Below, one piece after another: positions 12,111-30,950 of a stretch of DNA of 32,000 nt. The stretch lies in contig CP113000.1 of the NCBI GenBank assembly GCA_026625185.1, positions 1,725,622-1,757,621 of the forward strand. Direction: 5' to 3'. The DNA is from Thermodesulfobacteriota bacterium. Its GTDB lineage: Bacteria; Desulfobacterota; WTBG01; JAGOGO01. Position 1 is the stretch's first letter, and each line of letters opens with the position of its first letter. Both the position numbers and the translations under genes were made by a program. The notes below the pieces were generated by a model. The model made no database searches, had not been told where the DNA came from, and worked only from the letters and a program-made list of their open reading frames with translations.

Positions 12111-12154
12111 GGTATTCTCCTGAGTTGATGAGTAATGATTTAAGAAAAAGGTAA

Positions 12155-12763
12155 TTAACTGATAAAGGGGTCCATTGTTTTTATGCTGGCCGCTTTTTCA
12201 TGGGAAAGGCCTTCAGCCATCTTTTTTAGGAGCAGGGAAAGCTGTTTCAACTCTTCCTGGGAAAGGCAGCGCATCAAAGGGACAAACTCTTCTTCATAGG
12301 CAGAAAGAATCTCTCCAAAAAGCTGTTCCCCTTTCGGGGTAAGTCTCACCCATATTTTTCGGCGGTCTTTTTTATCCTGATCCCTGATAACAAACTCATC
12401 CCTTTCCAAATGATCCACAATCGTGGTGATATTTCCTTTGGTAACCAGCAATTCTTTACCCAGCTTTCCTAGTGGCATATCTCCCTGGAGTCCTATGGTC
12501 GTTAGCACGTAAAGTTGGGGCAGGGTCACCCCTTTCTTACCGACTTTTTTTCGGATTTCAGTGGAAATAACGGCATAAACCCTTAAAATTCTTACCCACA
12601 CCCCGATAGAGAGTTCTTTTAGTAAGCCCCTTCTGGAACGGGATAAAGACGATGTAAGGGTTTTTATGCCGGGAGAATCTTGCATTCTACTAAAGAAACT
12701 AAGATTTTTTAAATTTAGATTTTTATCATAATAATTTAGAAAAGTCAATTTATTTCCCGACAA
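12155..12763 (-). CDS. MarR-family transcriptional regulator (start codon ambiguous)
   Basis: The winged-HTH core reads LPQLYVLTTIGLQGDMPLGKLGKELLVTKGNITTIVDHLERDEFVIRDQDKKDRRKIWVRLTPKGEQL. The longest ORF (TTG at 12763) gives 202 aa, long for MarR. An internal ATG at 12685 would give 176 aa. A TTGACT-N17-TAAAAA promoter-like element lies inside the putative extension. Neither start has an SD. Confidence 0.8.
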   Translation of the reverse strand: MSGNKLTFLNYYDKNLNLKNLSFFSRMQDSPGIKTLTSSLSRSRRGLLKELSIGVWVRILRVYAVISTEIRKKVGKKGVTLPQLYVLTTIGLQGDMPLGKLGKELLVTKGNITTIVDHLERDEFVIRDQDKKDRRKIWVRLTPKGEQLFGEILSAYEEEFVPLMRCLSQEELKQLSLLLKKMAEGLSHEKAASIKTMDPFIS

Positions 12764-13050
12764 GATTATTTAAAAAATACTTTAATAAATTTTTTAACCA
12801 TTCGAAATTTAAATATTTATTCCAAAAATTAAAAGCCCCATTCCCTTTTTCTTTTGATTCCTTTTGTCACTTATTGATTTTCCGGGTAGTTTTGTTTGGT
12901 TGACAGTAGGCCCTGAAAAAATGTAATCCTTTTTGAGAAACCTCCTCAACCAAGGTGTTGCATATTTGTTTTGAGATAAATATCTTACGCTAACAATTTG
13001 AAGGAAACGTAAGAATTTTTTTGAGGAAAAATGGTTTTCCGGAGGAGCAG

Positions 13051-13070
13051 AGGAGGGGATTCCCCCTCCT
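13051..13070 (-). terminator. Candidate stem-loop terminator downstream of qmoC
   Basis: Perfect 8-bp G/C-rich stem (AGGAGGGG / CCCCTCCT) with a 4-nt loop, starting 19 nt after the qmoC stop. On the minus strand a T-run (CCATTTTTCC) appears only about 20 nt further on, so it is not a textbook intrinsic terminator. Confidence 0.4.
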
Positions 13071-13089
13071 TTGGATAAATTTAAAGTAG

Positions 13090-14223
13090 TTACTTTTTTC
13101 GATTGGTATATTCAGCGAAGATCATTGCTACTGTTCGATAAATCATGTGGGCAAACTTTGAGTAGGGAAGGTAGGCGAGAAGATAAAACACAAAGACCAA
13201 ATGGAGGACATAAAAAAGGTATGCCAAAAAAGCAGCTTCTGCCATGCGGGCAAACTGGGTAAGGAATCCGGTGATAGCCACGCACAAAATAGTCCAGGTA
13301 AAAACTGAATCAAGATAGGTGCCGGCTCCGGCCTTATCCTTGTTGACAGAACGGTTGTAAAGCACCAGCAGACATCCCACCACAATTGCTATCCCTCCCA
13401 AATTCCCCGCGACCTTGACTACACTAAAAAAAGACCACGGAGGCAAAAATAATTCATTGCCTTTGAAAAACAGTTTTTCTGCCCAAATACCTCCCGCACT
13501 GATAGATGTGGCGATAAGGCATAACACAAAGCCGTAGAATATGCAAAGATGGGCGTAATACCTTATTTGGTTTGCTACACAGTCATTGAATTTTTCGTGC
13601 CGCAAAATTTTGCTCATTACCGGTATCAGGTAAGACTTGGAGGCGCTAAGCAGCGTTGGCGCACCATCTATTCCCTGGATAAGAATGGTCCAGAACCTGT
13701 TTGTTCCCGTAAAAAGACCGATAAATACCAGAAGGGTAAAAACTCCTGCAGCAATATCGATTACTTCATATGGAATAAAGTTCCTGAAAAGGATTGGTCC
13801 AGAAGGTATGGTATTACCCCGCAGCATCAGCAATAAAAGAAGAATGGGAAACCCAAAAAGAAGGGGGAGATACCGAGCCTGACTTAAAATTTTACCCATG
13901 AATCGAGGAAAGGCTAAATTGATAAAACTATAGTTACGGACAGCGGCAAGGACTTCACCCGGTTTTGCGCCTCTCGGACAATGCACTGAGCAGTCATTGC
14001 AGTTGTAACAGAGCCAGATATCCGGGTCTTGCATCAGCTTGTCTTTTAAACCCCATTGCGCCCAAATCATCTCTTTTCGAGGAAAAGGGTTGTCCTCAGG
14101 GGTTAACTTGCAGACGACAGAACAGGTGGCGCACTGAAAACATTTTTTTAGCGAGTCACCTCCCAGGGATTTAACGTCTTTAATAAAATCAAGATCAGGT
14201 TTTACAATAGTCGAATCAGCCAT
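13090..14223 (-). CDS. qmoC: Quinone-interacting membrane-bound oxidoreductase subunit C (QmoC)
   Basis: 377 aa. The N-terminus has two ferredoxin-type Cys motifs (CFQCATCSVVC, CYNCNDCSVHCP). About six TM helices follow (NarI/HdrE-like heme-b domain). AGGAGG SD. The gene lies directly after qmoB. Confidence 0.9.
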   Translation of the reverse strand: MADSTIVKPDLDFIKDVKSLGGDSLKKCFQCATCSVVCKLTPEDNPFPRKEMIWAQWGLKDKLMQDPDIWLCYNCNDCSVHCPRGAKPGEVLAAVRNYSFINLAFPRFMGKILSQARYLPLLFGFPILLLLLMLRGNTIPSGPILFRNFIPYEVIDIAAGVFTLLVFIGLFTGTNRFWTILIQGIDGAPTLLSASKSYLIPVMSKILRHEKFNDCVANQIRYYAHLCIFYGFVLCLIATSISAGGIWAEKLFFKGNELFLPPWSFFSVVKVAGNLGGIAIVVGCLLVLYNRSVNKDKAGAGTYLDSVFTWTILCVAITGFLTQFARMAEAAFLAYLFYVLHLVFVFYLLAYLPYSKFAHMIYRTVAMIFAEYTNRKK

Positions 14224-14235
14224 GATTCATTCCTC

Positions 14236-16449
14236 CTACATTCCTTTATAGGGATTGGGGCCAACTTTATCAATGGTTTCCATGAAACTATCAATGATGT
14301 TGGGAATCTTATTGAAATCAGAGTGAGCAACCAGCTCGAAACGAATTCGGTCGGATTCAAGCTTCAGCCGGTCCAGGGTTTCCTTAACCTTTATCATCCG
14401 ATAGCTGGCCAGTTCACTCCCTTTTACCATATGGCATTGATAATCATCGCCGTGCTTGCAGGCTAAAAGGAGCACGCCGTCAATGCCCTTGGAAAGGGCA
14501 TCGGCAATCCAGACCAGGTTCGTTGAACCCACACAGCGCAAAGGGATGATCCGCGCGTAAGGAGTGTAGGTAAGACGATTCATTCCCGCCATATCGATAG
14601 CGGGATAAGCGTCGTTTTCGCAGGCCAGGATGAGAATTCTGGGCTTTTCTTCATAATCTTCCGGAACTTCGATATTCTTTATCATGGAACCGATCATATC
14701 CACCGAATAATCCTTAAAAGAAATGATTCGTTCCGGGCAGGATCCCATACAGATAGCGCAACGCCGGCACCGGGTAGGATTAGGGAGAGGATTGCATTTT
14801 TCGTCTTCATTGATGGTGCCGAAGGGGCATTCCTCAGTGCACCGTTTGCACTGGGTGCAGCGCTGCATAAAAAAGTCAGGGTAGGTCCGGTCACCGGCCC
14901 GTGGATGGACTGCTTCGCCCCGGGAACTCATCTCCACGCACTGAATCGCTTTAAGGGCGGCGCCGGTAGCGTCTTCCATGGTTGAAGCCAGGTCTATGGG
15001 AGAACGCACCGCTCCGGCCGCGTAAATACCGGTGCGCCGGGTCTCGTAAGGAAAACAGACAAAGTGGGAGTCGGGGAACCCATACTTAAGTGGCGGCAAT
15101 TCCGGTCCCTGTCGGTAATCAAGGTTGAGGATATTTGATCTGATGATGATATCAGTTGGTGGCGGCGGTTGATTTTCCTTTTTATCCTTTTCTTCCTCCA
15201 CCACAATCTTGATTGCCTCTCCGAGAGCCGTGGCTGGCACCATGCCGGTTGCCAGCACCACCAAGTCTGCTTCGATTTTTATATTTTCACCGAGCAGCGT
15301 GTCTTTTACCTCTACTGTTACCGCGGCATCGTTTCCGTTTACCGCTGTGACTTCGCCCTTGGTAAAAAATATACCGTCATCCTGCTGGACGGCTTTGTAA
15401 AAATTTTCATAAAGCCCGGGGGTACGCATGTCTTTATAAATAATATACACCTTGGCCTCCGGGTTCTGCGTACGGATGTACTTGGCTTGTTTAAGCGATT
15501 CCATACAGCAGATAGCAGAGCAATAAGGAAGATGATTATTATCCCGCGATCCGGCGCAAAGAATAAAAATCACGCTTCCGGCTGTCTTCCCGTCCGAAGG
15601 CTTGTTTATTTTTCCCCCGGCGACAAGCTCTTCCAGCTGTTCCCGGGTGACGATATTTTTCGAGGTCCCGTAGCCCAGATGTCCAAGCTTACCGGCATCA
15701 TAAGAAACCGCACCCGCGGCATTTATAATAGACCCGGCTCGCTCAGAAACCGAGTTCCCATTTTGTTTTATCGCCACGTCAAACAATCCCGGCATGCCAC
15801 TGATCTTTTCTATGGTAGCTGAGGTGTAAACCTTGACATTGGACGCCTGGTCAATTTCGCGCATCAGGGCTTCGATCATGCCCGAATCCTCGATTGCTTC
15901 GAAGGGGGATTGGGTAGGGCAAAGTTTGGTTTGCTTTTTAACCCATCCGCCCAGGGTATTTTCCTTTTCCACGAGAATGACATTGTAGCCGGTTCGGGAA
16001 GTTTCCAATGCCGCGGTCATTCCCGCAAGCCCACCGCCAACCACCAGAATGTTTTTCACGATATCTTCAACCTGGTAGGGGGTAACAAAATCCATCTTCT
16101 GTATTCGCACCACTCCCATACGCAGAGTGTCTTCTGCCAGCATCTGAGTGTCTTCATCATTGGGTTTATGACACCACGCCACCTGCTCCCGCAAGTTTAC
16201 GCGGTTTAAAAGCACGTCGGGTCCGAATTGAAAAACTTCGGTTTTTACCCGCTGGGAGCAAGCGGCGATAACTACCGCATTGACCCCTTCGCTGATATCC
16301 TGTTTGATGAGAGCGGGCCCTTCCTTGCCGCATAAGACGTCATGGCTCTTGCAAATCGGAGTTTTAGCGATTTTTCCCAATGCCTCTATATTAATGGATT
16401 CTCCAATCTCGCAGCCTTTACAAATATACACACCGATCTTTTTATCCAT
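14236..16449 (-). CDS. qmoB: Quinone-interacting membrane-bound oxidoreductase subunit B (QmoB; HdrA-like flavoprotein with MvhD-like C-terminal domain)
   Basis: 737 aa. It has the dinucleotide motif VVGGGLAGMTAALE and two 4Fe-4S motifs (CTQCKRCTEECP, CRRCAICMGSCP). The C-terminal MvhD-like region reads ILILACENDAY ... LRCVGSTN ... LLLACKHGDDYQCH. GAGGAGG SD. Confidence 0.92.
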   Translation of the reverse strand: MDKKIGVYICKGCEIGESINIEALGKIAKTPICKSHDVLCGKEGPALIKQDISEGVNAVVIAACSQRVKTEVFQFGPDVLLNRVNLREQVAWCHKPNDEDTQMLAEDTLRMGVVRIQKMDFVTPYQVEDIVKNILVVGGGLAGMTAALETSRTGYNVILVEKENTLGGWVKKQTKLCPTQSPFEAIEDSGMIEALMREIDQASNVKVYTSATIEKISGMPGLFDVAIKQNGNSVSERAGSIINAAGAVSYDAGKLGHLGYGTSKNIVTREQLEELVAGGKINKPSDGKTAGSVIFILCAGSRDNNHLPYCSAICCMESLKQAKYIRTQNPEAKVYIIYKDMRTPGLYENFYKAVQQDDGIFFTKGEVTAVNGNDAAVTVEVKDTLLGENIKIEADLVVLATGMVPATALGEAIKIVVEEEKDKKENQPPPPTDIIIRSNILNLDYRQGPELPPLKYGFPDSHFVCFPYETRRTGIYAAGAVRSPIDLASTMEDATGAALKAIQCVEMSSRGEAVHPRAGDRTYPDFFMQRCTQCKRCTEECPFGTINEDEKCNPLPNPTRCRRCAICMGSCPERIISFKDYSVDMIGSMIKNIEVPEDYEEKPRILILACENDAYPAIDMAGMNRLTYTPYARIIPLRCVGSTNLVWIADALSKGIDGVLLLACKHGDDYQCHMVKGSELASYRMIKVKETLDRLKLESDRIRFELVAHSDFNKIPNIIDSFMETIDKVGPNPYKGM

Positions 16450-16453
16450 CGCG

Positions 16454-17710
16454 TTACCTCCTCACCGTAGATTGAATTGCTTTGAGTGTTGCTGCCGTGG
16501 CGTCCTGAACAGCGGCTGCCACATCCATCGGTTTTCTCACACAACCGGCGCCGTAAATACCTCGCTTGTTTTGATCCCATAAGACGAAGCCGTTTTCTTC
16601 GTAGGAAACATCAGCAGGTATTCTTGTCTGAACAGTTGCAGGCACCATGCCCGTGGCCAGAACAACCATGTCTACGGTCTCTTTCGAGAGCTTGCCTGAA
16701 AGTTGATCCTCCGCGGTCACCGTGAGCGCTCCGGTGGCCGGATCTTCGGTGATCTCTGCGACTTTTCCCTTGATAAAAGAAACCTTTTGATCTTTGGCCA
16801 CCTCAGTATAGAAGTCTTCGAATTTTCCCAACGCACGAATGTCGATATAGAAAATATAAATCTGAGCGTCCGGATACTGCTCATGGACGTAACGGGAATG
16901 TTTTAACGAGGCAAGGCAACACACTGAGGAACAGAAAGGAAGAAAGTTTTCATCCCGTGATCCGGCGCACTGCACAAAGGCAATGCCGGCAATTTCTTTC
17001 CCGTCGGAGGGACGTACGATTTTCCCTTTGGTGGGACCGTTCAATGAGGCCATACGCTCCATCATCACATTGTTAATAACATTTTTATGTTTTCCAAATC
17101 CGTAATATTCCACCTTACCTGCGTCAAAAGGCTGCCACCCGGTAGCCCACACGATTGCTCCCACCTTGAGGTCCACGATCTCAGGTTTCATGTCTAAATC
17201 GACGGCGTTATATTTGCAGGCGTCCTTGCATTTTTGAGCATCAGGGGTGCCGATAATCTGAGGAGAGATTACGTAGCGCAATGGAAAAGCAAAACTAAAA
17301 GGAAGATATGCCCCCTTTATGGTGTCCATGCCATAATTAATTTCGTTGGGGATTTCTGTGGAGCAAGCTTTTGCACAATCGCCGCACGCGGTGCAATTTT
17401 CATTCACATAACGAGGATTAACTTTTACCTTAACCTCATACGCTCCTTCCTGCCCGGATATGCTTTCAACTTCCGCCAACGTAAAATAGTGAATTCGGGG
17501 ATTATCCTTAATCCGACGAAAATTGATTTCCAAACCGCAGCTCGGAGGGCAGAGTTTAGGAAAATACTGATTGTTCTGGGCCACTCTTCCTCCTAAGGTG
17601 GGGTTTTTTTCCACCAGGTAAACATCGCAGCCTATTTCGGCAGCTTCCACGGCTGCGGTTATACCGCTCATCCCACCTCCTACCACTAATATTGTTTTGT
17701 TATCGCTCAT
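16454..17710 (-). CDS. qmoA: Quinone-interacting membrane-bound oxidoreductase subunit A (QmoA; HdrA-like flavoprotein)
   Basis: 418 aa. It has VVGGGMSGITAAVEAAE, CTACGDCAKAC, and an HdrA-like core collinear with the N-terminal half of QmoB. GGGAGG SD. Confidence 0.92.
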   Translation of the reverse strand: MSDNKTILVVGGGMSGITAAVEAAEIGCDVYLVEKNPTLGGRVAQNNQYFPKLCPPSCGLEINFRRIKDNPRIHYFTLAEVESISGQEGAYEVKVKVNPRYVNENCTACGDCAKACSTEIPNEINYGMDTIKGAYLPFSFAFPLRYVISPQIIGTPDAQKCKDACKYNAVDLDMKPEIVDLKVGAIVWATGWQPFDAGKVEYYGFGKHKNVINNVMMERMASLNGPTKGKIVRPSDGKEIAGIAFVQCAGSRDENFLPFCSSVCCLASLKHSRYVHEQYPDAQIYIFYIDIRALGKFEDFYTEVAKDQKVSFIKGKVAEITEDPATGALTVTAEDQLSGKLSKETVDMVVLATGMVPATVQTRIPADVSYEENGFVLWDQNKRGIYGAGCVRKPMDVAAAVQDATAATLKAIQSTVRR

Positions 17711-17923
17711 ACATTTTACCTCCCTATGTCCTTTAAATACCTAATCCGAAATTTTTAATATGCCGCGTGAACAACGCTGCAAGACAATCATCTCTTCTCA
17801 AACCACCACGACCAACCACGGAAAAACGTATAGTGAGGAGACCACAATGGTAAAAAAAAATTGCTGAAAGAATAATCAACAAAAAAATAATAGCAAAAGA
17901 AATTCACCGAAAAAAAGGAAATC

Positions 17924-19813
17924 TCATTTTTTCAGCGGCAAAATCTCCCGCTTTAACATCACCCATTCCCCGGTCTTTGGAATCCATCTGCAATTGGCGA
18001 ACACCTGCCAGTTCTTCTGGTCGATATCCGGGTAATCAGCCCGATAATAGTAACCCGGCCATCTGGTTTCTTCGCGAAACAAGACCGTCCGAATATGAGC
18101 TTCCGCTTGCCACATTCGGTGAACATTTTCCCAGCATCGCATCAGTTCATGAAGGTCCTCAGCAGCGAGTTTATCTGAGTCCTCTTTTAAGTATGCCAGA
18201 AGCTCCAAGCCTTTCTCCAGGAGAGGTTTATTGGTGTTGAAGTGCATGGTTACACCACCGGCATATTCGTCCATGATCTTCTGAAGTCGAAACATAAAGT
18301 CCTTTGGCTTAATATAGTTCGGATGAATGTTGGGATCGCTCGATTCTTCCCGGTTTTTCTTGAATGTGTCGAGAGGCTGGAGGATTTTCTTCTTAAGTTT
18401 CTCAACGTGAGCTTTATCCGCGTTGGGCTGGGTATTGTTTTCAACAATAAACCGAATAGCGGATTTAGCGGCAATTCTTCCTTCAGCGTGAGAGCCGGAA
18501 GAATATTTGTGGCTTGAAGCTCCGGAGGCATCTCCAGCGCAAAAAAGCCCTTTAACGGTGGACATGTTACAGTATCCCCAGTTGTATTCTGTTGGCGCAA
18601 CATCTTCAGGCCCGCTTACCCAGGCACCGGAACCGCCGGAATGGGAACCGATAAAATAAGGTTCGCAGGGATCAATTTCCGAAGGTTGCTTTTCGGGTTC
18701 AACGTTCGTGGCAGCCCAAAGTAGGGACTGGGTAATGGTCATATCGAGAAAGTCTTCCCAGGCTTCATTTTCCAGTTCTTTAAGTTTTTTTCTTGCTTCC
18801 TTTTCATCCGGCGAGGCGTCAGCTATGTTTTTGATTGCCTCGGCAGTTTGCATATAAAGAGGACCATTGCCGCCGAAGAGGTCGATCATCCATAAGTGAT
18901 TTCTAAGGCAGGTAGGGATGGGTTTAGTAGTTCCGTAGGGAGCATATTTTTCAAGCTCATCGATACGAGTCACCAAAGAGTCCTCTCCTAACGCATTGGT
19001 GGAATTTGATTTATACAACAAAAACCAGGCTCCCACCGGACCATGGCCATCTTTGAAACGCATCGGTATAAACCGCACTTCCTGACCGGTCATCTCAGCG
19101 CCCGCTTTAAGGGTAAAATACGCGCTGGATCCGGTGTTCCACGGGGCATACCAGGTGCGGCCAAACCCTTCGCCGGTAGATCGTGGTCGGAACACATGTG
19201 CCGCCCCGCCCATGGCGACTAATACGGCTTTTGCTTTGAATATATAAAATTTTTGGTCGCGGACGCTGAAACCGACGGCGCCGGCAATCCGGTCGCCATC
19301 CAGAAGGGGCTCAACAATAAAAACTCTTTCGAAAAGATGCTCCTCCAAGGGGCCGAGGCTTTTTAAGGCATTTTTTGCGGCTTCTGCAATGATTACTTTG
19401 TACGACTCTCCATTAATCATAATTTGCCATCGGCCTTCATGGACGTATTTGCCGTCTTCGTCCTTCCAGATGGGAAGTCCCCAGCGCTCAAAAAGATGAA
19501 CGGAAGAATCCACATGCCGGGCAATGTTTAATACCAAGTCTTCCCGGGTAATGCCCATCATGTCATTGCGGACGTAAGCCACGTAATCATCAGGGCTGTT
19601 AGACTCATCAGCCAGGCCGAGGTATAGATTCAAAGCCGAAAGACCCATTGCCACCGCACCGCTCCGGTCGGTGGCGGCCTTATCAACCATAACGACGTTG
19701 AGACCGTTTTTTTTGGCCCAGTAAGCTGCTTCCACCGCGGCGCCACAGGCGGACATTCCGCCGCCGATGATCAAAAGGTCTGTGATTACTTCGATTGTTT
19801 TAAAATCAGCCAT
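17924..19813 (-). CDS. aprA: Adenylylsulfate (APS) reductase alpha subunit, copy 1 (host-like codon usage, adjacent to qmoABC)
   Basis: 629 aa. Motifs present: LLIIGGGMSACGAAVEAAYWAK, GLSALN, GRTWYAPWNTGS, RFIPMRFKDGHGPVGAWFLLYK, EPYFIGSHSGGSGAW, HKYSSGSHAEGR, RWPGYYYRADYP. No SD upstream (TTATTAATAACTGCGAT-ATG). Confidence 0.9.
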   Translation of the reverse strand: MADFKTIEVITDLLIIGGGMSACGAAVEAAYWAKKNGLNVVMVDKAATDRSGAVAMGLSALNLYLGLADESNSPDDYVAYVRNDMMGITREDLVLNIARHVDSSVHLFERWGLPIWKDEDGKYVHEGRWQIMINGESYKVIIAEAAKNALKSLGPLEEHLFERVFIVEPLLDGDRIAGAVGFSVRDQKFYIFKAKAVLVAMGGAAHVFRPRSTGEGFGRTWYAPWNTGSSAYFTLKAGAEMTGQEVRFIPMRFKDGHGPVGAWFLLYKSNSTNALGEDSLVTRIDELEKYAPYGTTKPIPTCLRNHLWMIDLFGGNGPLYMQTAEAIKNIADASPDEKEARKKLKELENEAWEDFLDMTITQSLLWAATNVEPEKQPSEIDPCEPYFIGSHSGGSGAWVSGPEDVAPTEYNWGYCNMSTVKGLFCAGDASGASSHKYSSGSHAEGRIAAKSAIRFIVENNTQPNADKAHVEKLKKKILQPLDTFKKNREESSDPNIHPNYIKPKDFMFRLQKIMDEYAGGVTMHFNTNKPLLEKGLELLAYLKEDSDKLAAEDLHELMRCWENVHRMWQAEAHIRTVLFREETRWPGYYYRADYPDIDQKNWQVFANCRWIPKTGEWVMLKREILPLKK

Positions 19814-19851
19814 ATCGCAGTTATTAATAAGAGCAATAAAAGGTTTGCAAA

Positions 19852-20150
19852 TTATGCTGCAGCATAGCGAACATATTTTTGGGAAAAATATTTCTTGACC
19901 ACATGAGGCTGACGTTGACGGTTACGCAGGTAACCTCGTACATTTTTAACCAACTATTGCTGATCTTTGGCGCGACGTCTTCCCACAGCATTGCTCTTTA
20001 CATCCTGGTTAAGTAGCTCGTCAGGATTAAGTTCTGGGCAGTAGCTGGGCAAAAAGAATAAACGAATATGTTCCCTATGTTCGGTTAGTAATGAATTAAG
20101 AAACTGGGTATTGAATAAACGAAGAGGGATAATGTGCAATTTCCCCCTGC
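19852..20150 (-). mobile_element. IS630-family transposase remnant (3' third only, with an in-frame stop), filling the aprB1-aprA1 spacer
   Basis: The minus-strand translation reads ...HIRLFFLPSYCPELNPDELLNQDVKSNAVGRRRAKDQQ-TAG-LVKNVRGYLRNRQRQPHVVKKYFSQKYVRYAAA-stop. It carries the LPxYxPELNP DDE-region signature and the typical IS630 C-terminus. The in-frame TAG is at 19954-19956. No N-terminal two-thirds and no recognisable terminal repeats are present. Boundaries are approximate. Confidence 0.75.
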
Positions 20151-20152
20151 CT

Positions 20153-20593
20153 CTATTGTTTCGGCCTTGGAACCGAGCGTGTCAAAGACGCCGGTTCAGT
20201 CATCAGTTCTCCTGCGCTCAGATCCTCGGGGCCTTCCGGGAAACCTCCCAAAGGATCAGCGTAGCCTTCGGGCGTGGTCCGAATGAGAAACTTAAACCGT
20301 TTGGTCATTCGGTTGCGGAAGGTGATGGTCCACAAAATATTATCCGATCCCCGCAAGGGGATAACACTTGCTCCTAGCGGAATAAAGTCGGAATATCCTC
20401 GTACGTCAATTGCCTGTTGGGGACAGATTTTAACGCAGTTGTAACATTCCCAACACATCTGGGGATCCCGGTTGTAAGCCTTTAGGGTCGCCGGGTTGAT
20501 GGCCATGAGATCATTGGGGCAGATATATTGACAGGCGGCCTTATCTTGCCCCTTGCAGCCGTCGCATTTTTTCACGAGCACAAAACTTGGCAT
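20153..20593 (-). CDS. aprB: Adenylylsulfate (APS) reductase beta subunit, copy 1
   Basis: 146 aa. Motifs present: MPSFVLVKKCDGCKG..ACQYICPND, CWECYNCVKICPQQA, IPLRGSDNILWTITFRN..KRFKFLIRTTPEG. Eight of nine Arg codons are CGN. No SD upstream (AAGCTTAAGTTCAAAAT-ATG). Confidence 0.9.
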   Translation of the reverse strand: MPSFVLVKKCDGCKGQDKAACQYICPNDLMAINPATLKAYNRDPQMCWECYNCVKICPQQAIDVRGYSDFIPLGASVIPLRGSDNILWTITFRNRMTKRFKFLIRTTPEGYADPLGGFPEGPEDLSAGELMTEPASLTRSVPRPKQ

Positions 20594-20602
20594 ATTTTGA
20601 AC

Positions 20603-20716
20603 TTAAGCTTGTCATGGTTCGACAAGCTCACTATGACAAGTGACCCTGAGCACTTTGATTCCGTTCGTCCTGAGCTTGTCGAAGGACGAACGTCACTCAG
20701 CACAGTCTTGTCGAAT
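20603..20716. repeat. REP/MITE-like palindromic intergenic element (RPELVEGR / FDKLT type)
   Basis: Two perfect hairpins are present: AGCTTGTC-7nt-GACAAGCT (20606-20628) and CGTTCGTCC-13nt-GGACGAACG (20662-20692). Internal direct repeats also occur: GCTTGTC x2, CTTGTCGAA x2, CTGAGCAC/CTCAGCAC. Its translation (FDKLTMTS...VRPELVEGRTSLS) matches pseudo-proteins I recall from a widespread environmental repeat family. Confidence 0.6.
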
Positions 20717-20773
20717 GGTAACTATTTACTTATGTCGATCACTATAGAGACTAAAACATTGAATGTCTCACAA

Positions 20774-21595
20774 CTAAATAGCAGACCCAAAACCTTCCGC
20801 TTCATGTGAGTGCTCCCCTTTTTTATATTCACCCCTTACTTTCAACGTTTCTTCAAGCATCAGTATATATTTAAGGTATTTGAATCCGAACTTCATTAGC
20901 GCTGTCTCATCAGTCTTTATTTTTTCGACCTCCTCCTTATCAATCTCAAGGATATCGAGAAGTTTACTCTCAAAAACGAATTTTCTGAACTTATCTATAT
21001 CATAACTTGCCAGGTAAAGCATGGCCTGTTTGTTTGGGGTGAGTTTGGACTGCTCAGATGTGTTTCTCCTCAACTGGATCTCCTTCCACTCCCTATTCAT
21101 CTCATCATAAAGGTCAGCCCCCTGTTCAATCCTCCAACTCCCTATCGTCCACTCTCTGTCTCCCTGATAACCAAGACAATTCGGATCTTTTATAAAGAAG
21201 TAGAATTCTTCCTTTATTGGCCCTTTATCTGAGTCCACTATCATGATACCTTGACCGACTGGATAATAGCGACAGTTAGAGGGCCGATCTTCATAAATAC
21301 TGCAACCAGCAGGGGTAACAAAGGGACATTTTTCCTCATTATCATCCATCGTCTTAAGCACTGCATAAGGATGTGATGTTTCTTCATCAATATAGGTGTA
21401 GGTGTATTTTTCGAGGAAATCTCCTGAAGAGATTCCCAACCTATCTTTTATTCTTAGGATATCATAGGGGGTAAGAATTATACTTTTACGGCTACAACAT
21501 TTAGTAAAGCAACTGATATCATGATGGCATCTGAATTTGAATTCAGCATTCAGTGTGCGATTAATAGGATCTACAGTACTCATATCCATTAACAT
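20774..21595 (-). CDS. YkgJ/UPF0153-family cysteine-cluster protein (COG0727-like), paralogue 2
   Basis: 273 aa. Motifs present: FRCHHDISCFTKCC, LTPYDILRIK, CPFVTPAGCSIYEDRPSNCRYYP, NCLGY. It aligns along its full length with the upstream paralogue. An AAAGGGG SD lies 6 nt upstream. Confidence 0.8.
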   Translation of the reverse strand: MLMDMSTVDPINRTLNAEFKFRCHHDISCFTKCCSRKSIILTPYDILRIKDRLGISSGDFLEKYTYTYIDEETSHPYAVLKTMDDNEEKCPFVTPAGCSIYEDRPSNCRYYPVGQGIMIVDSDKGPIKEEFYFFIKDPNCLGYQGDREWTIGSWRIEQGADLYDEMNREWKEIQLRRNTSEQSKLTPNKQAMLYLASYDIDKFRKFVFESKLLDILEIDKEEVEKIKTDETALMKFGFKYLKYILMLEETLKVRGEYKKGEHSHEAEGFGSAI

Positions 21596-21638
21596 AGATT
21601 ACCCCTTTCTGGCTTAATCTTGATGGAGTCGTAAAAAG

Positions 21639-22412
21639 TCAAAATTTCCTCTTAGCTTGCAGAACCTTATCAAATACTTTATCTTTGAGTCTTAAAGTGT
21701 CTTCCCCGAAAAGATTGAATCTTACCCATCTATATCCAAAACTTAGGAGTTCTTCCCCGTCTTCTTTTACCCTTTCAATAATTTCCCTCTCCACATCATA
21801 GATGTCAAAAAACCTGGTTTCAAAAAGAAATTTCTTAAACTCATCGAGGTCATAACAGGCCGTATAAAGCAACTTCGACCTTCCTGGATCAAGTTTATTA
21901 GCCTTCAGGAAGTAATCATGATGGGTAATTTCTTTATAAGATTCATTCATTATATCATAGATCTCGATCCCCTGAGCCTTCTTCCACTCATCAATTGTCC
22001 ATTGTTTTTCCTCTTTAAATCCAAGACATGAGAGCTTTTTCCCCATCAAAAACTCTTCTTTCTCAGAGGAAGCCGGGAATAGAGGATACATCCGGCATGC
22101 CCAGGGCCGATCTTCGTAAATCTCACAACCGCAGGGAGTAACAAAAGGACACTGCTTGTTTTCATCTTCCCTCATCTTAAGCACCACTAAGGGTAACCCC
22201 TCATCTCCTAAGAGCGGAATGGTATAATCCTTTAAGAATTCCCCTGAAGACAATCCCATAGCCTTTTTCATTCTCAGGACATCATAAGGCGTGAGAAAGA
22301 TATTTACATCAGCACAGCAGACGTTAAAGCAGGAAAGCTCATTGTGGCATAAAAATTTGAATTCGCCCTCCGGAGAGAGCATCAGACGTTTTTCACCGTA
22401 CTCTTCATTCAT
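21639..22412 (-). CDS. YkgJ/UPF0153-family cysteine-cluster protein (COG0727-like), paralogue 1
   Basis: 257 aa. Motifs present: FLCHNELSCFNVCC, LTPYDVLRMK, CPFVTPCGCEIYEDRPWACRMYP, SCLGF. No clear SD. The start lies 27 nt after the terminator hairpin. Confidence 0.8.
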   Translation of the reverse strand: MNEEYGEKRLMLSPEGEFKFLCHNELSCFNVCCADVNIFLTPYDVLRMKKAMGLSSGEFLKDYTIPLLGDEGLPLVVLKMREDENKQCPFVTPCGCEIYEDRPWACRMYPLFPASSEKEEFLMGKKLSCLGFKEEKQWTIDEWKKAQGIEIYDIMNESYKEITHHDYFLKANKLDPGRSKLLYTACYDLDEFKKFLFETRFFDIYDVEREIIERVKEDGEELLSFGYRWVRFNLFGEDTLRLKDKVFDKVLQAKRKF

Positions 22413-22439
22413 AATTCATAGGCCATTTTCTCATTAAAA

Positions 22440-22469
22440 TTTGGGGGCGACGGTAAGGTCGCCCCCAAA
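22440..22469 (-). terminator. Rho-independent terminator/attenuator between aprA2 and the ykgJ-like genes
   Basis: Perfect 12-bp stem TTTGGGGGCGAC / GTCGCCCCCAAA with a 6-nt loop. On the minus strand it is followed immediately by TTTTAAT. It starts 12 nt after the aprA2 stop. Confidence 0.75.
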
Positions 22470-22481
22470 GATACATTTGCT

Positions 22482-24398
22482 TTAAATAATAGGAATCATT
22501 GGCCTTTTAAGTACGCTCCATTCCTTTTTATCCACATCGTACTTAACGTTGATAAATTGCTTCTCACCTTCATCCAGTTTGAGGTAATCGGTTTTATAGT
22601 AGTATCCAGGCCACCTTGACTCTTTCCTGGCAAGCCTTGTCCTTGCACATGCCTCACCAACATAGACCCTATGGACACTCTCCCATGCCCTCATTAACTC
22701 ATGAAGGTCTTTGGCAGCAAGCTTCTCTACATCTTCTGCGCAGAAACCCAACTTCCAGAGGGCGATTTCGAGCAGCTGGTCATTTGTTCCATACAATGTC
22801 TCCCAACCACCAACGTATTCTCCCATTATCTTCTGCAGCCTGAACAGGAAATTATGAGGGGAGATATAATTAGGATTCACATCGGGACTGGTTGTATAGT
22901 TGTTTTGTTCTTCATAGTAGGCAAGGGGTTTCAATATTGTTTCCTTAAGTTTCCCTATGGTAGCATCAGATATCGTCGGGGTATAGGCCTTCTTGTCATT
23001 GGCATACTTCAATGCTGACTTTGCTGCAATCCTTCCCTGTACGTGTGAACCGCTTGAGAACTTATGGGCGCATGCTCCCACCCCACACCCTGCGGTGAAC
23101 AAGCCGTTCACCGTGGTCATAAGATTGTACTGCTCTGGGAATGCATCAGCATATTCTTTTGGCATTAGATCTTCAGCGCCACAGGTCCAGGAACCGACAG
23201 AGCAGGCATGCGAACCAATGAAAACGGTATCCGACAACTGAAGTTCCATCGGTTTTTCCAATGGGTCAACATTATGAGCAGCCCAGTTTGTGGCGCCGGC
23301 GATGGTCATGTCGAGGAAGTCCTCCCACGCCTCACTCTCATACTCTCTTATCTTCTTTTTCAGTTCCTTTTGATCTGTTATCTCCTTCTTAAACCTATCT
23401 ACCACCCGGTTTGTGTGCATGAGATAGGGTGTTTTACCTTCTTTCGCGCAGAGTATCATCTCATAATTTCTTAAAGCAGTCGGACAGGGCTTCGCATTTG
23501 AATAAGGTGCCCACTTAGCTAACTCTTCTGGATAAGCACCAACGTATGGCCCATCGAGGCCATTTGTTGCCGGGGTCTTAAAGAGCAGAAAGAATGTGCC
23601 CACGGGACCATAGGAATCCTTGAACCTCGGAGGAACAAAGGTCACATCCATCTGTGTAAGCTCACCACCTGCCTGGAGTACAAGAGCATAGATTGATCCG
23701 CTAACAAAGGGCGGCATCCATGACCTTCCAAAACCTTCAGCCTGAGACCTTGGCCTGAATACATGGACCGCGCCACCCATCAGGGCGATAGTTGCTTTAG
23801 CCTTAAACACGTAGATTTTATCTTCCCTAACGCTAAAGCCGATTGCACCGCATACTCTGTTGGGTTCCTTTTCATCCTTGAGTAGATGGGTGATCATGAC
23901 CCTTTCAATGATCTGGCCTTTATCACCAAGAGTGGCCATAGCGTTCTTTGCCGCTTCTGCCACAACAATCTTATAACTCTCGCCGGAGATCATTACCTGC
24001 CATTCACCTGATTTTCGATAGTTTCCTGTCTCATCCTTCCATATCGGAAGACCCCATTTATCGAAGTGTTTGACGGTTGAGTCAACATGCCGTGCGACAT
24101 CATAGACAAGGTCCTGTCTTGTCAGACCACACTGGTCATTTGTCACATACTCAACAAACCTTTCCGGCATACGGGGATTCTCGGTTACCTTTCCGTCCAT
24201 TCCCATATAGGTATTGATGGCGGAAAGCCCCATGGCCACCGGGCCACTTCGGTCAATGGCAGCTTTGTCTACGAGTGTTACCTTTAAACCCAGCGGCTTT
24301 GCCCAGTAGGCGGCTTCCACCGCAGCACCACAGCCGGCCATTCCTCCACCGAGTATCAATACATCAGTCTCCACAACTTCGGTTGCAAACTCTCTCAT
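22482..24398 (-). CDS. aprA: Adenylylsulfate reductase alpha-subunit homologue, copy 2 (divergent, foreign codon usage)
   Basis: 638 aa. Motifs present: VLILGGGMAGCGAAVEAAYWAK, GLSAIN, GRSWMPPFVSGS, TFVPPRFKDSYGPVGTFFLLFK, VFIGSHACSVGSW, HKFSSGSHVQGR, RWPGYYYKTDY. AAGGAGA SD 7 nt upstream. Arg codons are mostly AGG/AGA and Lys codons mostly AAG. Confidence 0.85.
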   Translation of the reverse strand: MREFATEVVETDVLILGGGMAGCGAAVEAAYWAKPLGLKVTLVDKAAIDRSGPVAMGLSAINTYMGMDGKVTENPRMPERFVEYVTNDQCGLTRQDLVYDVARHVDSTVKHFDKWGLPIWKDETGNYRKSGEWQVMISGESYKIVVAEAAKNAMATLGDKGQIIERVMITHLLKDEKEPNRVCGAIGFSVREDKIYVFKAKATIALMGGAVHVFRPRSQAEGFGRSWMPPFVSGSIYALVLQAGGELTQMDVTFVPPRFKDSYGPVGTFFLLFKTPATNGLDGPYVGAYPEELAKWAPYSNAKPCPTALRNYEMILCAKEGKTPYLMHTNRVVDRFKKEITDQKELKKKIREYESEAWEDFLDMTIAGATNWAAHNVDPLEKPMELQLSDTVFIGSHACSVGSWTCGAEDLMPKEYADAFPEQYNLMTTVNGLFTAGCGVGACAHKFSSGSHVQGRIAAKSALKYANDKKAYTPTISDATIGKLKETILKPLAYYEEQNNYTTSPDVNPNYISPHNFLFRLQKIMGEYVGGWETLYGTNDQLLEIALWKLGFCAEDVEKLAAKDLHELMRAWESVHRVYVGEACARTRLARKESRWPGYYYKTDYLKLDEGEKQFINVKYDVDKKEWSVLKRPMIPII

Positions 24399-24418
24399 GG
24401 TTATTTCTCCTTTCCTTT

Positions 24419-24862
24419 TTATTTCTTTGTTGGAAGCTCTTTTACTCCCATTATGTCAGGCTCTCCGAGGAGTAACTGATTGGCCAAATCTGCTGCCTTT
24501 GCCTCGGGAAATCCCTCCAGCGCCTTTATTGAACCCTCTGCTGTAGTTCTTGTTGGATACTTAAACCTCTTAATTCTTCCATCCCTGAAGGTGATCGTCC
24601 ACATGATGTCCTCTGATCCTCTCAGTGGGGTTGAGGCAGCACCAAGGGGCATAAAGTCAGCATAACCCCTTACGTCCATAGCCTGCTGTGGACATATCTT
24701 TACGCAACAGTAACACTCCCAGCAATAGTTAGGTTCCTGGTTATAGGCTTTCATCTTAACTTTATCCAATACCATTAAATCATTGGGACATATATACTGG
24801 CATGCAGTTTTGTCCTGCCCCTTGCAGCCATCACATTTTTCCGTAATTACATAACTTGGCAT
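24419..24862 (-). CDS. aprB: Adenylylsulfate reductase beta-subunit homologue, copy 2
   Basis: 147 aa from the ATG at 24862 (MPSYVITEKCDGCKG, the canonical AprB N-terminus). The ORF-track GTG at 24874 lies inside the SD (GTGGAGGTAATT-ATG). Motifs present: ACQYICPND, CWECYCCVKICPQQA, PLRGSEDIMWTITFRD. All six Arg codons are AGA/AGG. Confidence 0.9.
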   Translation of the reverse strand: MPSYVITEKCDGCKGQDKTACQYICPNDLMVLDKVKMKAYNQEPNYCWECYCCVKICPQQAMDVRGYADFMPLGAASTPLRGSEDIMWTITFRDGRIKRFKYPTRTTAEGSIKALEGFPEAKAADLANQLLLGEPDIMGVKELPTKK

Positions 24863-24987
24863 AATTACCTCCACAAAAAAAAATTAACACTTCTTGTTTA
24901 CAAAAATTGTTTTCACTGAAACCTTGCGGTCTTACCACCTCCTTTCTGAGAAACTATCTTAAAAGCAAAAAAATTTCCTCTACGTTC

Positions 24988-26214
24988 TTATTTTGTTACC
25001 ACGTTTCCGGTTGCTGCTCCGTGGAGTTTTATTTCCACTTTCTTTTCTAAGCCCTGATAATATTCTTTTAAGATTTCTAAAACCTCAGGACGAGAGAATT
25101 GGGACGACAACATACCCCCTTCGGAGAGGGTTTTACGGACGATAGTTCCACTTAACAGAACCCGGTCATCCTTACCATGAGGACAGGTCCTCATGGATGC
25201 CATCCCGTCGCACTTTTTACAGTAAAAGGTCCAATCAATGGGAAGGGGTTTTAGTTTGAGAGCGTCTTCAGGAATTTCCAGGAAAATTTTCTGAGCATCG
25301 AAAGGCCCATAATAATCCCCAACTCCAGCGTGATCCCGGCCGACAATCAAATGGCTGCAACCGTAATTTTGCCGGAAGACCGCATGGAGCAATGCTTCTC
25401 TCGGGCCGGCATAGCGCATCTCCATGGGGTACCCACCCATAATGGTCGTATTTTTTACAAAATATTTTTCTACCAAGATATCGATCGCCTTGACTCTTAC
25501 GTCAGCGGGTATATCCCCTTCTTTAAGTTTTCCTAAAAGCTGGTGGATATATACCCCGTCACAGACTTCAATAGCTATCTTGGCGAGATACTCGTGAGAT
25601 CGGTGCATGGGGTTGCGAAGCTGGAGAGCCGCCACCGTCGCCCAGTCTTTTTCTTCGAAAAGTTTGCGAGCCTCTTCGGGTCGCTGGTAAAGTCCGGCAA
25701 ATTCTTTGGGGAAGTAACTTTCGCTCAGCACTTTTATTGGTCCGGCTAAATTTATTTCGCTCTGCTCCATTACCTTGGCAACGCCTGGATGCGCAGTATC
25801 TTCAGTCCAGAAAACTTTTTTGCATTCATGCGCTTTATCAATCTTATATTTTTCGGTTATTTTCATTGTGGCCAGAATTTCATCGTTTTCCGTGTCGAGA
25901 AGAGCTACCTCTTGACCAATCGAGAGGGAATCGGACAAGGCTTTGGTTGCCGAGATGGTAATGGGGATAGGCCAAAAAAGACCGGTTGCCATCTTATATG
26001 AATCGCAAATCCCTTTCCAGTCATCATAGCCCATAAACCCTTCCAGCGGGGTAAAGGCGCCGATGGCCAGCATAAGCACATCGCCGGCTTCCCGAGAGGT
26101 CATGGGAACTACTGTGAGCGTCTTTGCCTTTGCCTTTTCTTCTTCTAAGGCCTTACCTTCTAATAATAACGGCTTGAGCGCTCCTCCTCCATGGGGTGGA
26201 ACTAATTTTGACAT
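24988..26214 (-). CDS. sat: Sulfate adenylyltransferase (ATP sulfurylase)
   Basis: 408 aa. Motifs present: [30 protein letters not shown], and a C-terminal Cys/His pattern ([15 protein letters not shown]). AAGGAGG SD. Confidence 0.95.
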
Positions 26215-26757
26215 GATGTTAGCCTCCTTTCAAAATCACTATTTTAAAGGTTAATTTAATCTCTCCTTTTTCCCTGTTGTTGCTCCAATGTTTTTATGGG
26301 AGTCCGGAGAAAGGAAAATTTTTCTCCAACGAAGAAGAGTAGACAAATATAAATATGTCCGGTAAATCTTCCTCGGTTCAAAATCCAAGGCTAACTTTAG
26401 CAAAAGCGAAATCAGAAGGCGCTAACGAAAAAAAAGCTTAAGATTGCTAAAGTAAGTTTTATTTTTTTTGAATTCAGTGGGTTTCACCGAATTATTGCCC
26501 AAGTAAAAGAAAATAACGTCTTTTGCAGCACTAAAAAAAATGATGTTTCCGGCTTTCATGTCATTCTTAATGCTAATCATAACTGACTTTTGTCACAGCA
26601 CAATTTTGTTTTTCTCAACTTCTAATCGAAAAATCCACACTAATTTCAATGAATTTAGTGATGCCTCTATTTAATTAAAAAATCTTCCGATGTGCTAACG
26701 TATTTCTCAGCACAAGAAATGATTTTTATCAAAAAAGTTACTGAAATTTGTCAGTTG

Positions 26758-27456
26758 TTATTTTTCGGAAATCTTTTGAAGTCGGGCAGGATTTAGAAGG
26801 GAAATTGAGTTTTTACCAATATCAATCAAATTTTCTCGCTTAAAATCTTGGAGAATACGTATCGCGGTCTCCTCACAAAGGCCTACTACTTCAGCAAACT
26901 CCACCCGGGACAAAGGCAAATCGAAATCAAGTCGTTGCTCATCAAAGAGGTTTTCAGAGAGATCCAGTACGAAGGATGCTATGCGGGAACGAGCATTTTT
27001 TTGTCCCAGTTCCATTATTTTTTTATAGGAACGAACCAACTTTTTTTTCATGAATTCAATAAAAATTATCCCGGTCTTTGGTCTTCGTTTCAGCAGGTTT
27101 TCTAACAGGTTTTTATCAATAGCGCATAGTTCAGAATCCACTAAAGTTTCAGAACTATGATGACCAAAATCCTCAAAAAGACAATGAAGGTTTAGGATAT
27201 CTTCCTTTTTAATAATGGAAAGAATTTGTTGCTTTCCGCCCGGCAATGATTTGTAGGTCTTTACCAGACCCTTTTTTACTATATAGATATTTTGAACTGG
27301 GTTTGCCTCCATACAGATGACCTGGCGCTTTTTATAGCGGATCGGAAAAGTTATTGAGCAGATATCTTCTTTACTCTCTTCATCAAAGTCTTTCCAGGCA
27401 TGTCCATAGAATACGATACAATTCTTACAAATTGTCCCTTTGCAGTAAATCGGCAT
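26758..27456 (-). CDS. CRP/FNR-family transcriptional regulator with an N-terminal Cys cluster
   Basis: It has a cNMP-binding-like beta-roll plus a C-terminal HTH (LSRVEFAEVVGLCEETAIRILQDFKRENLI). I place the start at the ATG at 27456 (MPIYCKGTICKNC) because a GGAGA SD lies 8 nt upstream. The ORF-track TTG at 27471 would include that SD in the coding sequence. Cys residues fall at positions 5, 10 and 13. Confidence 0.85.
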   Translation of the reverse strand: MPIYCKGTICKNCIVFYGHAWKDFDEESKEDICSITFPIRYKKRQVICMEANPVQNIYIVKKGLVKTYKSLPGGKQQILSIIKKEDILNLHCLFEDFGHHSSETLVDSELCAIDKNLLENLLKRRPKTGIIFIEFMKKKLVRSYKKIMELGQKNARSRIASFVLDLSENLFDEQRLDFDLPLSRVEFAEVVGLCEETAIRILQDFKRENLIDIGKNSISLLNPARLQKISEK

Positions 27457-28025
27457 ACTGATTATCTCCAATAAAGAAATATTTTAATTAGTCAACCCTG
27501 AAAAATAGGCTTTAAAATCTTTATTAATACTGAGTGGGTCTTTGAAAATTAAATAGAATTACAAAAAAAACTGCCATTTTTCTGATGATTTCATGATAAA
27601 TTAATTGAAATGTCAATCACCTTAGCGTGGAACATGAAAAAAATAACCCGCATGGCCAACCGTAAGGAAGAAAAACAGACCTTAAGAACAAACAAACAAG
27701 CCGACCCTAACCCCAAACTATTTCAAGACCTGCCTGTCGGCAGACAAGGAGGCACCTCTTTCACAATTATACTCAGTCTTCAAAGAACAATTTCTATCAA
27801 AAAAACGTATTTTTCGAGATGTACTAATTAATTATATATTAAAGTTAAGCTATTTGAAATAAAAATTTTTTTATGCTAAAAAATCCATAAAGAGATTTTC
27901 CCGTCTTCTCCTCAATGGATTAGATACCTTCTGGAAGATTATAAAATTTTTAATGTATGAAATTTAGTGTACCATTTTAAATTGATATTAACCAGATAAT
28001 TATGATTTGGAAGGAGGGAAACATT

Positions 28026-30814: not shown

Positions 30815-30950
30815 AAAATCAAGCTGTAAAAAAACTAGTGTTTAGAGTGGCTATCTGCCTTTCCTATATAACCTTCCCAATTTTTTATTAAATCATTGAT
30901 TTCTTCGCGGCATTCCTGCAGTATAGCGAAGATTTCGGTTGAACGAGCAA

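Follow-up and report, generated by a model that had tools for sequence, protein, structure and literature searches.

How does one of two adenosine-5'-phosphosulfate (APS) reductase gene pairs in a single sulfate-reduction locus come to start without Shine-Dalgarno (SD) sequences? AprBA is among the core enzymes of sulfate reduction, its aprA gene serves as a standard marker for microbes of the sulfur cycle, and lateral transfer of aprBA among sulfate reducers is well known. The question is raised by a 32,000-nt stretch of DNA from a Thermodesulfobacteriota bacterium (GCA_026625185.1, contig CP113000.1, forward strand 1,725,622-1,757,621), referred to below, at its full length, as the window. 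On its minus strand, to which all features of the locus belong, the window carries sat, aprB2, aprA2, two genes for CxxCxxCC-domain proteins, aprB1, aprA1, qmoA, qmoB, and qmoC. The interval under study (19814-20773) comprises the spacer between aprB1 and aprA1, aprB1 itself, and the 180-nt region upstream of aprB1. An initial annotation had proposed that an insertion sequence (IS) and a repetitive extragenic palindromic (REP)-like element destroyed the SDs of aprB1 and aprA1, and that this pair is being displaced by aprB2A2. In the account that we consider likely, a foreign cassette containing aprB2A2 would instead have captured the leader of the resident aprB1A1 pair, the resident genes would have lost their SDs, and the IS would have left its scar later.

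Shine-Dalgarno signals and probable capture of the resident leader

The -22 to -3 region of each of 26 genes in the window was paired with the 3' tail of 16S rRNA, and SD strength was scored as predicted duplex energy. The seven strongest signals (-10.7 to -15.6 kcal/mol) belonged to sat, aprB2, aprA2, qmoA, qmoB, qmoC, and CxxC-b, the CxxCxxCC gene next to aprB1. The corresponding motifs were AAGGAGG for sat, GGAGG for aprB2, AAGGAGA for aprA2, GGGAGG for qmoA, GAGGAGG for qmoB, and AGGAGG for qmoC. Energies for aprB1 (-0.6 kcal/mol) and aprA1 (+1.3 kcal/mol) were among the weakest of the 26, that of aprA1 being the weakest of all. Since a recognisable SD was found for about half of the genes in the window, the organism does use SD-led initiation. 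The motifs, and their absence from these two genes, were as initially annotated.

Two loci with closely related AprA1 proteins (L003 and L004, 94 and 93% identical, respectively) have the same dual-apr arrangement, with a 72-nt aprB1-aprA1 spacer that shows no transposase similarity. Both genes were nevertheless SD-less in these relatives, with pairing energies of -1.5 and -1.8 kcal/mol. The sequence before aprA1 was TAACTGAGAT-ATG in L003/L004 versus TAACTGCGAT-ATG in the window, a single substitution in the proximal 10 nt; before aprB1, L003/L004 and the window shared aagcttaagttcaaaat-ATG. In a more distant dual-apr locus (L091, AprA1 77% identical), aprB1 starts 29 nt after a CxxCxxCC gene without an SD, an IS, or a REP element, and the 50-nt spacer before its aprA1 holds no more than a weak, distant SD match.

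Single-apr relatives showed a different state. L090 and L213 have strong SDs (-10.7 and -13.7 kcal/mol) and an aprB-aprA gap of 15 nt containing AGGAGGT. Across the single-apr relatives, SDs were of the GGAGGT type and gaps measured 15-23 nt. Strong SDs and gaps of mostly 13-25 nt were likewise found in 80 aprA1-type loci from species-representative genomes, with Bacteroidales metagenome-assembled genomes (MAGs) as exceptions; SDs were missing in essentially no group other than these and the present clade. Because the single-apr relatives have GGAGGT-type SDs and short gaps, the SD-less state of aprB1 and aprA1 is, on this comparison, derived, and the initial claim that SDs were lost, not originally missing, was upheld.

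The single-apr loci L090, L213, and L214 occupy the same neighbourhood (plsX, trmFO, crp, sat ... qmoABC, marR, AMP-ligase, radical-SAM, lactamase_B), with flanking proteins 89-96% identical to those of the window. Their AprA and AprB were 82 and 75-77% identical to AprA1 and AprB1, and 51-52 and 69% identical to AprA2 and AprB2. Their sat-aprB leader, of ca. 127 nt, ends in ttttttttgtggaggtaattATGCCAAG, the sequence that precedes aprB2 in the window, and a more distant single-apr relative (L092) showed the same pattern. In the window, the leader between sat (24988-26214) and aprB2 (24419-24862; Pfam APS-reductase_C) spans 24863-24987, contains a strong SD, and ends in GTGGAGGTAATT-ATG; the true ATG of aprB2 lies 12 nt inside the listed GTG open reading frame (ORF). 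This leader hardly differs from the one that precedes the lone B1-type aprB of L090/L213 and is 91-94% identical to its counterpart in L003/L004. A resident-type leader also precedes aprB2 in L091. Because the sat-aprB leader of single-apr relatives is the sequence now found ahead of aprB2, these alignments identify the acquired aprB2A2-CxxCxxCC cassette as having captured the resident leader with its SD; aprB1 lost its SD because that leader now precedes aprB2. Over nt 1-45, aprB of L090 was 89-93% identical to B2 genes; beyond about nt 100 it resembled B1 genes more closely, and a recombination junction is thus suggested within the first ca. 45-100 nt of aprB.

That aprB1A1 is the resident pair and aprB2A2 the foreign one, as initially annotated, is supported by synteny with L090, L213, and L092, by codon usage, and by phylogeny. 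Correlation of relative synonymous codon usage with flanking genes of the window was 0.71 for aprA1, whose usage is thus host-like, and 0.67 for sat, compared with 0.08 for aprA2 and -0.09 for aprB2; GC and GC3 alone did not separate the two copies. AprA2 (encoded at 22482-24398; PF00890) was 80-86% identical to AprA from single-apr loci of the Nitrospirota/Dissulfurispiraceae type, organised as sat-(DUF6955)-aprBA-CxxCxxCC(x1-2)-qmoABC. AprB2 was 84-93% identical to AprB from cassette-type loci L086-L088 and L215. One or more CxxCxxCC genes follow aprA in L086-L089, L215, and L091. Where A2-type genes are the only aprBA present, they are accompanied by CxxCxxCC genes; the two CxxCxxCC genes of the window (21639-22412 and 20774-21595; PF03692) therefore belong with the A2-type cassette. 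A neighbour-joining tree placed ((window, L004), (L090, L213)), L091, L092, and Desulfofundulus in an A1 clade with 87-100% support, matching the relationships of the flanking genes, and nested AprA2 of the window among cassette-type sequences. The AprA2 sequences of the window and L091 were not sisters, with 63-76% bootstrap support at the intervening nodes, and L091 has one CxxCxxCC gene, not two; the dual state may thus have arisen twice.

The reverse assignment, with aprB1A1-qmoABC as the incoming DNA, had first been suspected: among species-representative genomes, the next relatives of AprA1 (Desulfofundulus) reach no more than 75% identity, and A2-type loci have a qmoABC of their own. 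It was rejected on the basis of codon usage and of the syntenic single-apr loci L090, L213, and L092.

A cassette-type contig (L086, ENA ERZ27247117 k141_179324, positions 1-21914) encodes AprA and AprB 86 and 90% identical to AprA2 and AprB2 of the window. It combines sat-DUF6955-aprBA-CxxCxxCC(x2)-qmoABC with genes for ribosomal proteins restricted to archaea and eukaryotes (Pfam S19e, L39e, L31e) and is either the product of a very recent inter-domain transfer or a chimeric contig.

Sliding nucleotide identity between the window and L090 was ca. 89-92% in the flanks, in sat and its leader to aprB2, and as far as the start of aprB2, fell to 59-78% across aprA1, qmoA, and qmoB, and returned to 84-95% from the qmoB/qmoC junction. 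These sharp boundaries, at ca. 24770-24815 (5' end of aprB2) and ca. 14160-14230, indicate that the aprB2..qmoB block of ca. 10.6 kb has a history different from that of its flanks. Identity of qmoAB to A1-type and A2-type loci was similar (60-65%). An assembly artefact, in which two apr pairs from co-assembled populations were joined without being truly adjacent, would also yield two pairs in a row, and contigs that start inside aprA2 (L001) and inside aprB1 (L002) show that assemblers sometimes break here. The order sat-aprB2A2-CxxC-CxxC-aprB1A1-qmoABC was, however, the same in the window, a 291-kb NCBI contig (L085), L001, and the two loci L003 and L004 from different studies, and recurred in varied form in L091. 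Because the tandem arrangement is found in at least five independent assemblies, we regard such an artefact as extremely unlikely.

The IS630-family remnant and the REP-like aprB1 leader

The spacer between aprB1 (20153-20593; Pfam APS-reductase_C) and aprA1 (17924-19813) measures 339 nt, against 20 nt between aprB2 and aprA2, in agreement with the initial annotation. IS-derived DNA (19824-20088), on the same strand as apr, accounts for 265 nt or 78% of it. The remainder is native: the 64 nt after the aprB1 stop (20089-20152) and the 10 nt before the aprA1 ATG (19814-19823, with the SD-less proximal leader of aprA1) both align with the IS-free spacer of L003/L004. The IS part therefore does not begin within a few nt of the aprB1 stop, as had been annotated, although its family and its in-frame stop codon were correctly recognised. 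The fragment matched Pfam DDE_3 (PF13358) above the gathering score (E=7.5e-10, profile positions 96-145 of 146) and NF033545 (E=1.5e-10, positions 246-297 of 299), the latter below the full-length cut-off, as expected for a fragment. It corresponds to the last ca. 78 codons of the transposase, with the stop at 19852-19854 and an in-frame TAG at 19954-19956, and shares 63-74% identity with orfB proteins, the intact relatives of which pass NF033545.

DNA and protein alignments to IS630-like elements of ca. 1.1 kb (L083 and L084, the latter with terminal inverted repeats (TIRs) of 34 nt) showed that homology extends past the transposase stop as far as the right terminus at 19824, and the right TIR (ca. 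19824-19851) could be aligned with both elements. TA dinucleotides at 20089-20090 and 19822-19823 flank the 265-nt insert as a target-site duplication, and the empty site in L003/L004 reads tcatTAactgagat / tcatTAactgagatATG. The insertion point was thus a TA 10 nt upstream of the aprA1 ATG. Assignment of 15 nt at 20074-20088 to the IS or to filler is ambiguous. The DDE_3/NF033545 transposase C-terminus, flanking TA, and right TIR are shared with the IS630/Tc1-mariner family; what differs is that only the last 265 nt are left. Having neither a left TIR nor the N-terminal three quarters of the transposase, the remnant does not qualify as a mobile element. After insertion, the element lost its left three quarters, exactly up to the TA site, and an immobile scar was left. 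In a search of 5.8 billion proteins the closest other transposase was 74% identical; the databases searched thus show no intact sibling copy.

Another metagenome assembly of the same species (L001, 4150-4170) has AAG in place of the TAG, and the two sequences also differ at 19939 (GTA versus GGA). These were the only substitutions between the window and L001 in ca. 1 kb, and both fall inside the remnant, as expected for a pseudogene. With AAG, the remnant forms an uninterrupted ORF of 95 codons that stops 38 nt short of aprA1. The native part of the spacer shares 76-78% identity with its counterpart in L003/L004, a roughly neutral rate that fits its tolerance of the IS. Folding of the spacer was no better than that of shuffled sequences (z=+1.3 to -1.5; -0.75 for a 361-nt version), and no terminator-like site was found on the coding strand within it. 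A polar block by the IS remnant, which the initial annotation had considered, is therefore not indicated.

The 5' region of aprB1 (20594-20773), which lacks an SD, lies between CxxC-b and aprB1 and folds into nested hairpins (minimum free energy -51.7 kcal/mol, z=-2.07). Its REP-like element (ca. 20605-20715) contains a 21-nt core, GTCCTTCGACAAGCTCAGGAC (20667-20687), that was found exactly in at least 120 unrelated metagenome contigs, often beside related GAGCTTGTCGAA-loop modules. Further repeat modules, including CCGTTCGTCCTGAGCTTGTCGAAGGACGAACGG and GGTGAGCTTGTCGAACCA, occurred in soil, sediment, freshwater, and marine contigs (L093-L172) of very different G+C content. Judging from these matches, the aprB1 leader repeat appears to belong to a cosmopolitan family of palindromic repeats, and the initial description as REP-like is fair. 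Like repeats of the REP or bacterial interspersed mosaic element type, it is a short, imperfect intergenic palindrome with composite modules, probably from a family dispersed over many genomes. It differs from them in that the GAGCTTGTCGAA-loop family spans very different metagenomes instead of one species. The core occurs once in the 32-kb window and in none of the other loci of the family. A scan of 12000-27500 against Rfam at E<=1 returned no family, and the aprB1 leader is therefore not a known riboswitch or small RNA.

At 96% identity to L003, the aprB1 leader is the best-conserved non-coding segment of the locus, ahead of the sat-aprB2 leader (91-94%) and of synonymous sites, and is probably functional. 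It includes a promoter-like GAGACA-17-TATAGT site (20741-20769); the number of promoter-like matches in the region was not above chance. Directly 3' of aprA2, an intrinsic-terminator-like hairpin (22440-22469) consists of a 12-bp stem with 8 G-C pairs followed by TTTT, and the spacer between aprA2 and the first CxxCxxCC gene that holds it is 91% identical in L004. Because this strong terminator-like hairpin follows aprA2 directly, its position suggests that sat-aprB2-aprA2 forms a transcription unit separate from the CxxCxxCC genes and aprB1A1.

In the 291-kb NCBI contig (L085; GCA_029216095.1, JARDUJ010000039.1), positions 9331-10001 correspond to 20153-20809 of the window. In the searched version of this record, aprB1 is not among the called genes, and a spurious 87-aa ORF is called instead on the opposite strand across the REP-like leader. 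SD-less starts and REP-derived ORFs can thus hide a core sulfur gene from annotation.

Selection on the two pairs and competing explanations

Both copies were identified as dissimilatory APS reductases, with PF12139 in both AprB and PF00890 in both AprA. The eight cluster cysteines of AprB, in two [4Fe-4S] motifs accompanied by the APS-reductase_C domain, are invariant. AprA1, of the A1 clade, gave a full-length match to Archaeoglobus fulgidus AprA (1JNR, E=2e-239), with conservation in the alignment of Asn74, Trp234, Arg265, and His398 (1JNR numbering), which we take to be catalytic residues. None of the four apr genes is disrupted in the window, L001, L085, L004, or L091, in line with the initial annotation of both resident ORFs as intact.

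Ratios of nonsynonymous to synonymous substitution rates (dN/dS) were calculated for the window versus L004. Values for aprB1 (0.067) and aprA1 (0.123) resembled those for aprB2 (0.061), aprA2 (0.101), sat (0.067), and qmoA (0.10), and both apr pairs are, by this measure, under purifying selection. L003 was set aside for rates: in this contig (3690-5605 and 11365-14739), frameshifts interrupt aprA2, qmoB, qmoC, and the AMP-ligase gene, while aprB1 and aprA1 are intact. These frameshifts are probably assembly indels, although aprA2 may truly be decaying in the strain concerned.

Relative-rate tests after Tajima, made with three outgroups, showed that AprB1 and AprA1 evolve significantly faster in dual-apr lineages. 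AprA1 had 54-58 unique changes versus 27-32 in L090 (chi2 5.6-11.3), and AprB1 had 21 versus 4 in a single-apr relative (chi2 11.6). L091 gave the same outcome. Single-versus-single and dual-versus-dual comparisons were not significant, and QmoA and QmoC showed no asymmetry. The excess of lineage-specific substitutions in the resident pair, 1.7-5-fold, points to relaxed or shifted constraint.

The comparisons among these loci established the anatomy of the locus and the order and polarity of the changes in it, and the following sequence of events is proposed. The ancestral family locus would have read crp-sat-aprB-aprA-qmoABC-marR, with one long sat-aprB leader ending in GGAGGTAATT-ATG and an aprB-aprA junction of 15-23 nt carrying AGGAGGT. 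A foreign aprBA-CxxCxxCC cassette, of the single-copy type found in Nitrospirota, Dissulfurispiraceae, and related contigs, would have entered directly behind this leader, probably by recombination inside the first ca. 100 nt of aprB. The incoming aprB2A2 would thereby have gained the resident leader, its SD, and co-transcription with sat, and resident aprB1A1 would have ended up 4.3 kb farther downstream, with a strong terminator and the CxxCxxCC genes ahead of it. There, aprB1 would now start after the conserved REP-like 5' region with its promoter-like site and without an SD, and the aprB1-aprA1 junction, deprived of its SD, would have drifted to 50-72 nt. At a later point, in the species of the window alone, an IS630-family element would have inserted at the TA 10 nt before the aprA1 ATG and been truncated to its last 265 nt, a scar that would have lengthened an already SD-less spacer and removed no ribosome-binding site. 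AprB2A2 would then be the main sat-coupled enzyme, and the two pairs would coexist stably.

Several points weigh against this account or parts of it. About half of the genes in the window have no SD, so that SD-less genes are common and translated here; less efficient translation of AprB1A1, or its separate regulation from a promoter of its own, is something that we infer and no more. Synonymous divergence (dS) was lower for aprB1 and aprA1 (0.13-0.25) than for aprB2, aprA2, and sat (0.19-0.42), and this low dS could reflect strong codon constraint and hence high expression. Few sites define the crossover inside aprB, and the non-sisterhood of the AprA2 proteins of the window and L091 has only 63-76% neighbour-joining bootstrap support. 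QmoA and QmoB are 73-78% identical to those of L090 without rate asymmetry, so that their divergence does not stem from acceleration, and the aprB2..qmoB block may have been imported in one piece from an unsampled sister lineage or built stepwise. All comparisons, moreover, draw on MAGs and metagenome contigs.

The initial model, in which the IS630 insertion and the REP-like element destroyed the resident SDs and left a poorly translated pair that is being replaced by aprB2A2, agrees with the observation that both elements are real and lie immediately upstream of two SD-less starts. The faster evolution of the resident pair and the strong SDs of aprB2A2 also agree with it. However, relatives without the IS share this SD-less leader of aprA1, and the insertion left the 10 nt beside the ATG unchanged; comparison with these relatives bore out the IS as the source of the long spacer, which is only 72 nt in its absence, but not as the cause of SD loss. 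L091, without either element, likewise has no SD on aprB1, and 96% conservation of the REP-like leader does not fit a decaying scar. The transposon scar is best seen as a late bystander. As for displacement, dN/dS values of aprB1 and aprA1 are in the same range (0.06-0.12) as those of aprB2 and aprA2, both pairs are intact, and no syntenic relative keeping only aprB2A2, and thus no lineage that lost the resident pair, was found among the loci compared. Decay or loss of the resident copy, by which displacement would be recognised, was not observed; SD loss and the rate excess are only supporting signs. We consider the initial model improbable. A better reading than displacement in progress appears to be that the two pairs coexist in the long term, with translation of the resident one down-tuned or separately regulated.

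Coexistence might alternatively reflect a stable division of labour, with AprB1A1 and QmoABC acting in a different direction or under different conditions from AprB2A2 and the CxxCxxCC proteins (e.g., reduction versus oxidation or disproportionation). The SD-less, REP-structured leader would then be no defect, having been selected as a regulatory feature that supplies a promoter, stabilises the mRNA, or, being AU-rich, allows initiation independent of an SD. Strong purifying selection on both pairs over a dS of 0.13-0.42, conservation of the aprB1 leader beyond that of synonymous sites, the terminator after aprA2 together with the promoter-like site before aprB1, and the same outcome in two dual-apr lineages are consistent with this explanation, under which the faster evolution of AprB1 and AprA1 could be adaptive. 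Relaxed constraint fits the rate excess equally well, however, and the promoter-like match is not above chance for the region. The near-neutral rate of the spacer and its tolerance of the IS argue against a tuned junction. Overall, we judge a division of labour of this kind rather unlikely, and leader capture followed by SD loss and a later IS scar remains the preferred account.

An extension of the preferred account is put forward tentatively: this family may have acquired A2-type aprBA-CxxCxxCC cassettes at the start of aprB on two occasions, once in the clade of the window and once in L091, each time with capture of leader and SD, loss of the resident SD, faster evolution of the resident pair, and its persistence. 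If true, leader capture with translational down-tuning would be a repeatable route in a core energy pathway, and the dual loci would represent either a long-lasting intermediate stage of xenologous displacement or a sharing of labour between two enzymes.

Relation to known systems and further features of the window

Two aprBA loci (Apr lineages I and II) have been reported in sulfur-oxidising bacteria, and xenologous replacement of the resident set has been proposed for some lineages (Meyer and Kuever, 2007, as summarised in PMC5099947). That case resembles the present one in that one genome contains two phylogenetically distinct AprBA sets, one of them laterally acquired. It differs in that, here, both sets are of the type of sulfate-reducing bacteria and stand in tandem within one sat...qmoABC locus of a lineage labelled Thermodesulfobacteriota; the incomer carries CxxCxxCC genes and took the resident leader and SD, and the resident copy was kept under purifying selection. 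In searches for tandem dual aprBA in lineages resembling sulfate-reducing bacteria, the two-locus case of sulfur oxidisers was the only one found, and the searched literature yielded no description of tandem dual aprBA in one sat...qmoABC locus combined with leader capture and resident SD loss. Xenology of aprBA is thus known, and the tandem dual arrangement with leader capture and an SD-less resident pair appears to be new.

Compared with the canonical sat-aprBA-qmoABC operon, which L090, L213, and L092 show in its usual form, genes and gene order are the same. The differences are a second aprBA and two CxxCxxCC genes inserted between leader and aprB, and a resident aprBA without SDs. QmoABC is the presumed electron donor to AprBA (PMC3333476). 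In the window, qmoA (16454-17710) and qmoB (14236-16449) lie inside the mosaic segment, with qmoC at 13090-14223.

The locus provides a dated natural series, from single-copy to dual to dual with IS, in which one can follow how recombination behind a resident leader brings a laterally acquired operon to expression, and the subsequent fate of the resident copy. Tandem, distinct aprBA sets, one of which uses the expression signals of the other, affect the reading of marker-gene surveys and metabolic reconstructions from MAGs.

Outside the sulfate-reduction genes, the window contains a perfect 21-nt inverted repeat (TAAGAACTTATCCGTAAATAA and its complement) at 30951-30971 and 31296-31316, with the arms 324 nt apart. 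One arm lies upstream of a 125-aa ORF on the minus strand (30888-31265), and the other lies within it.

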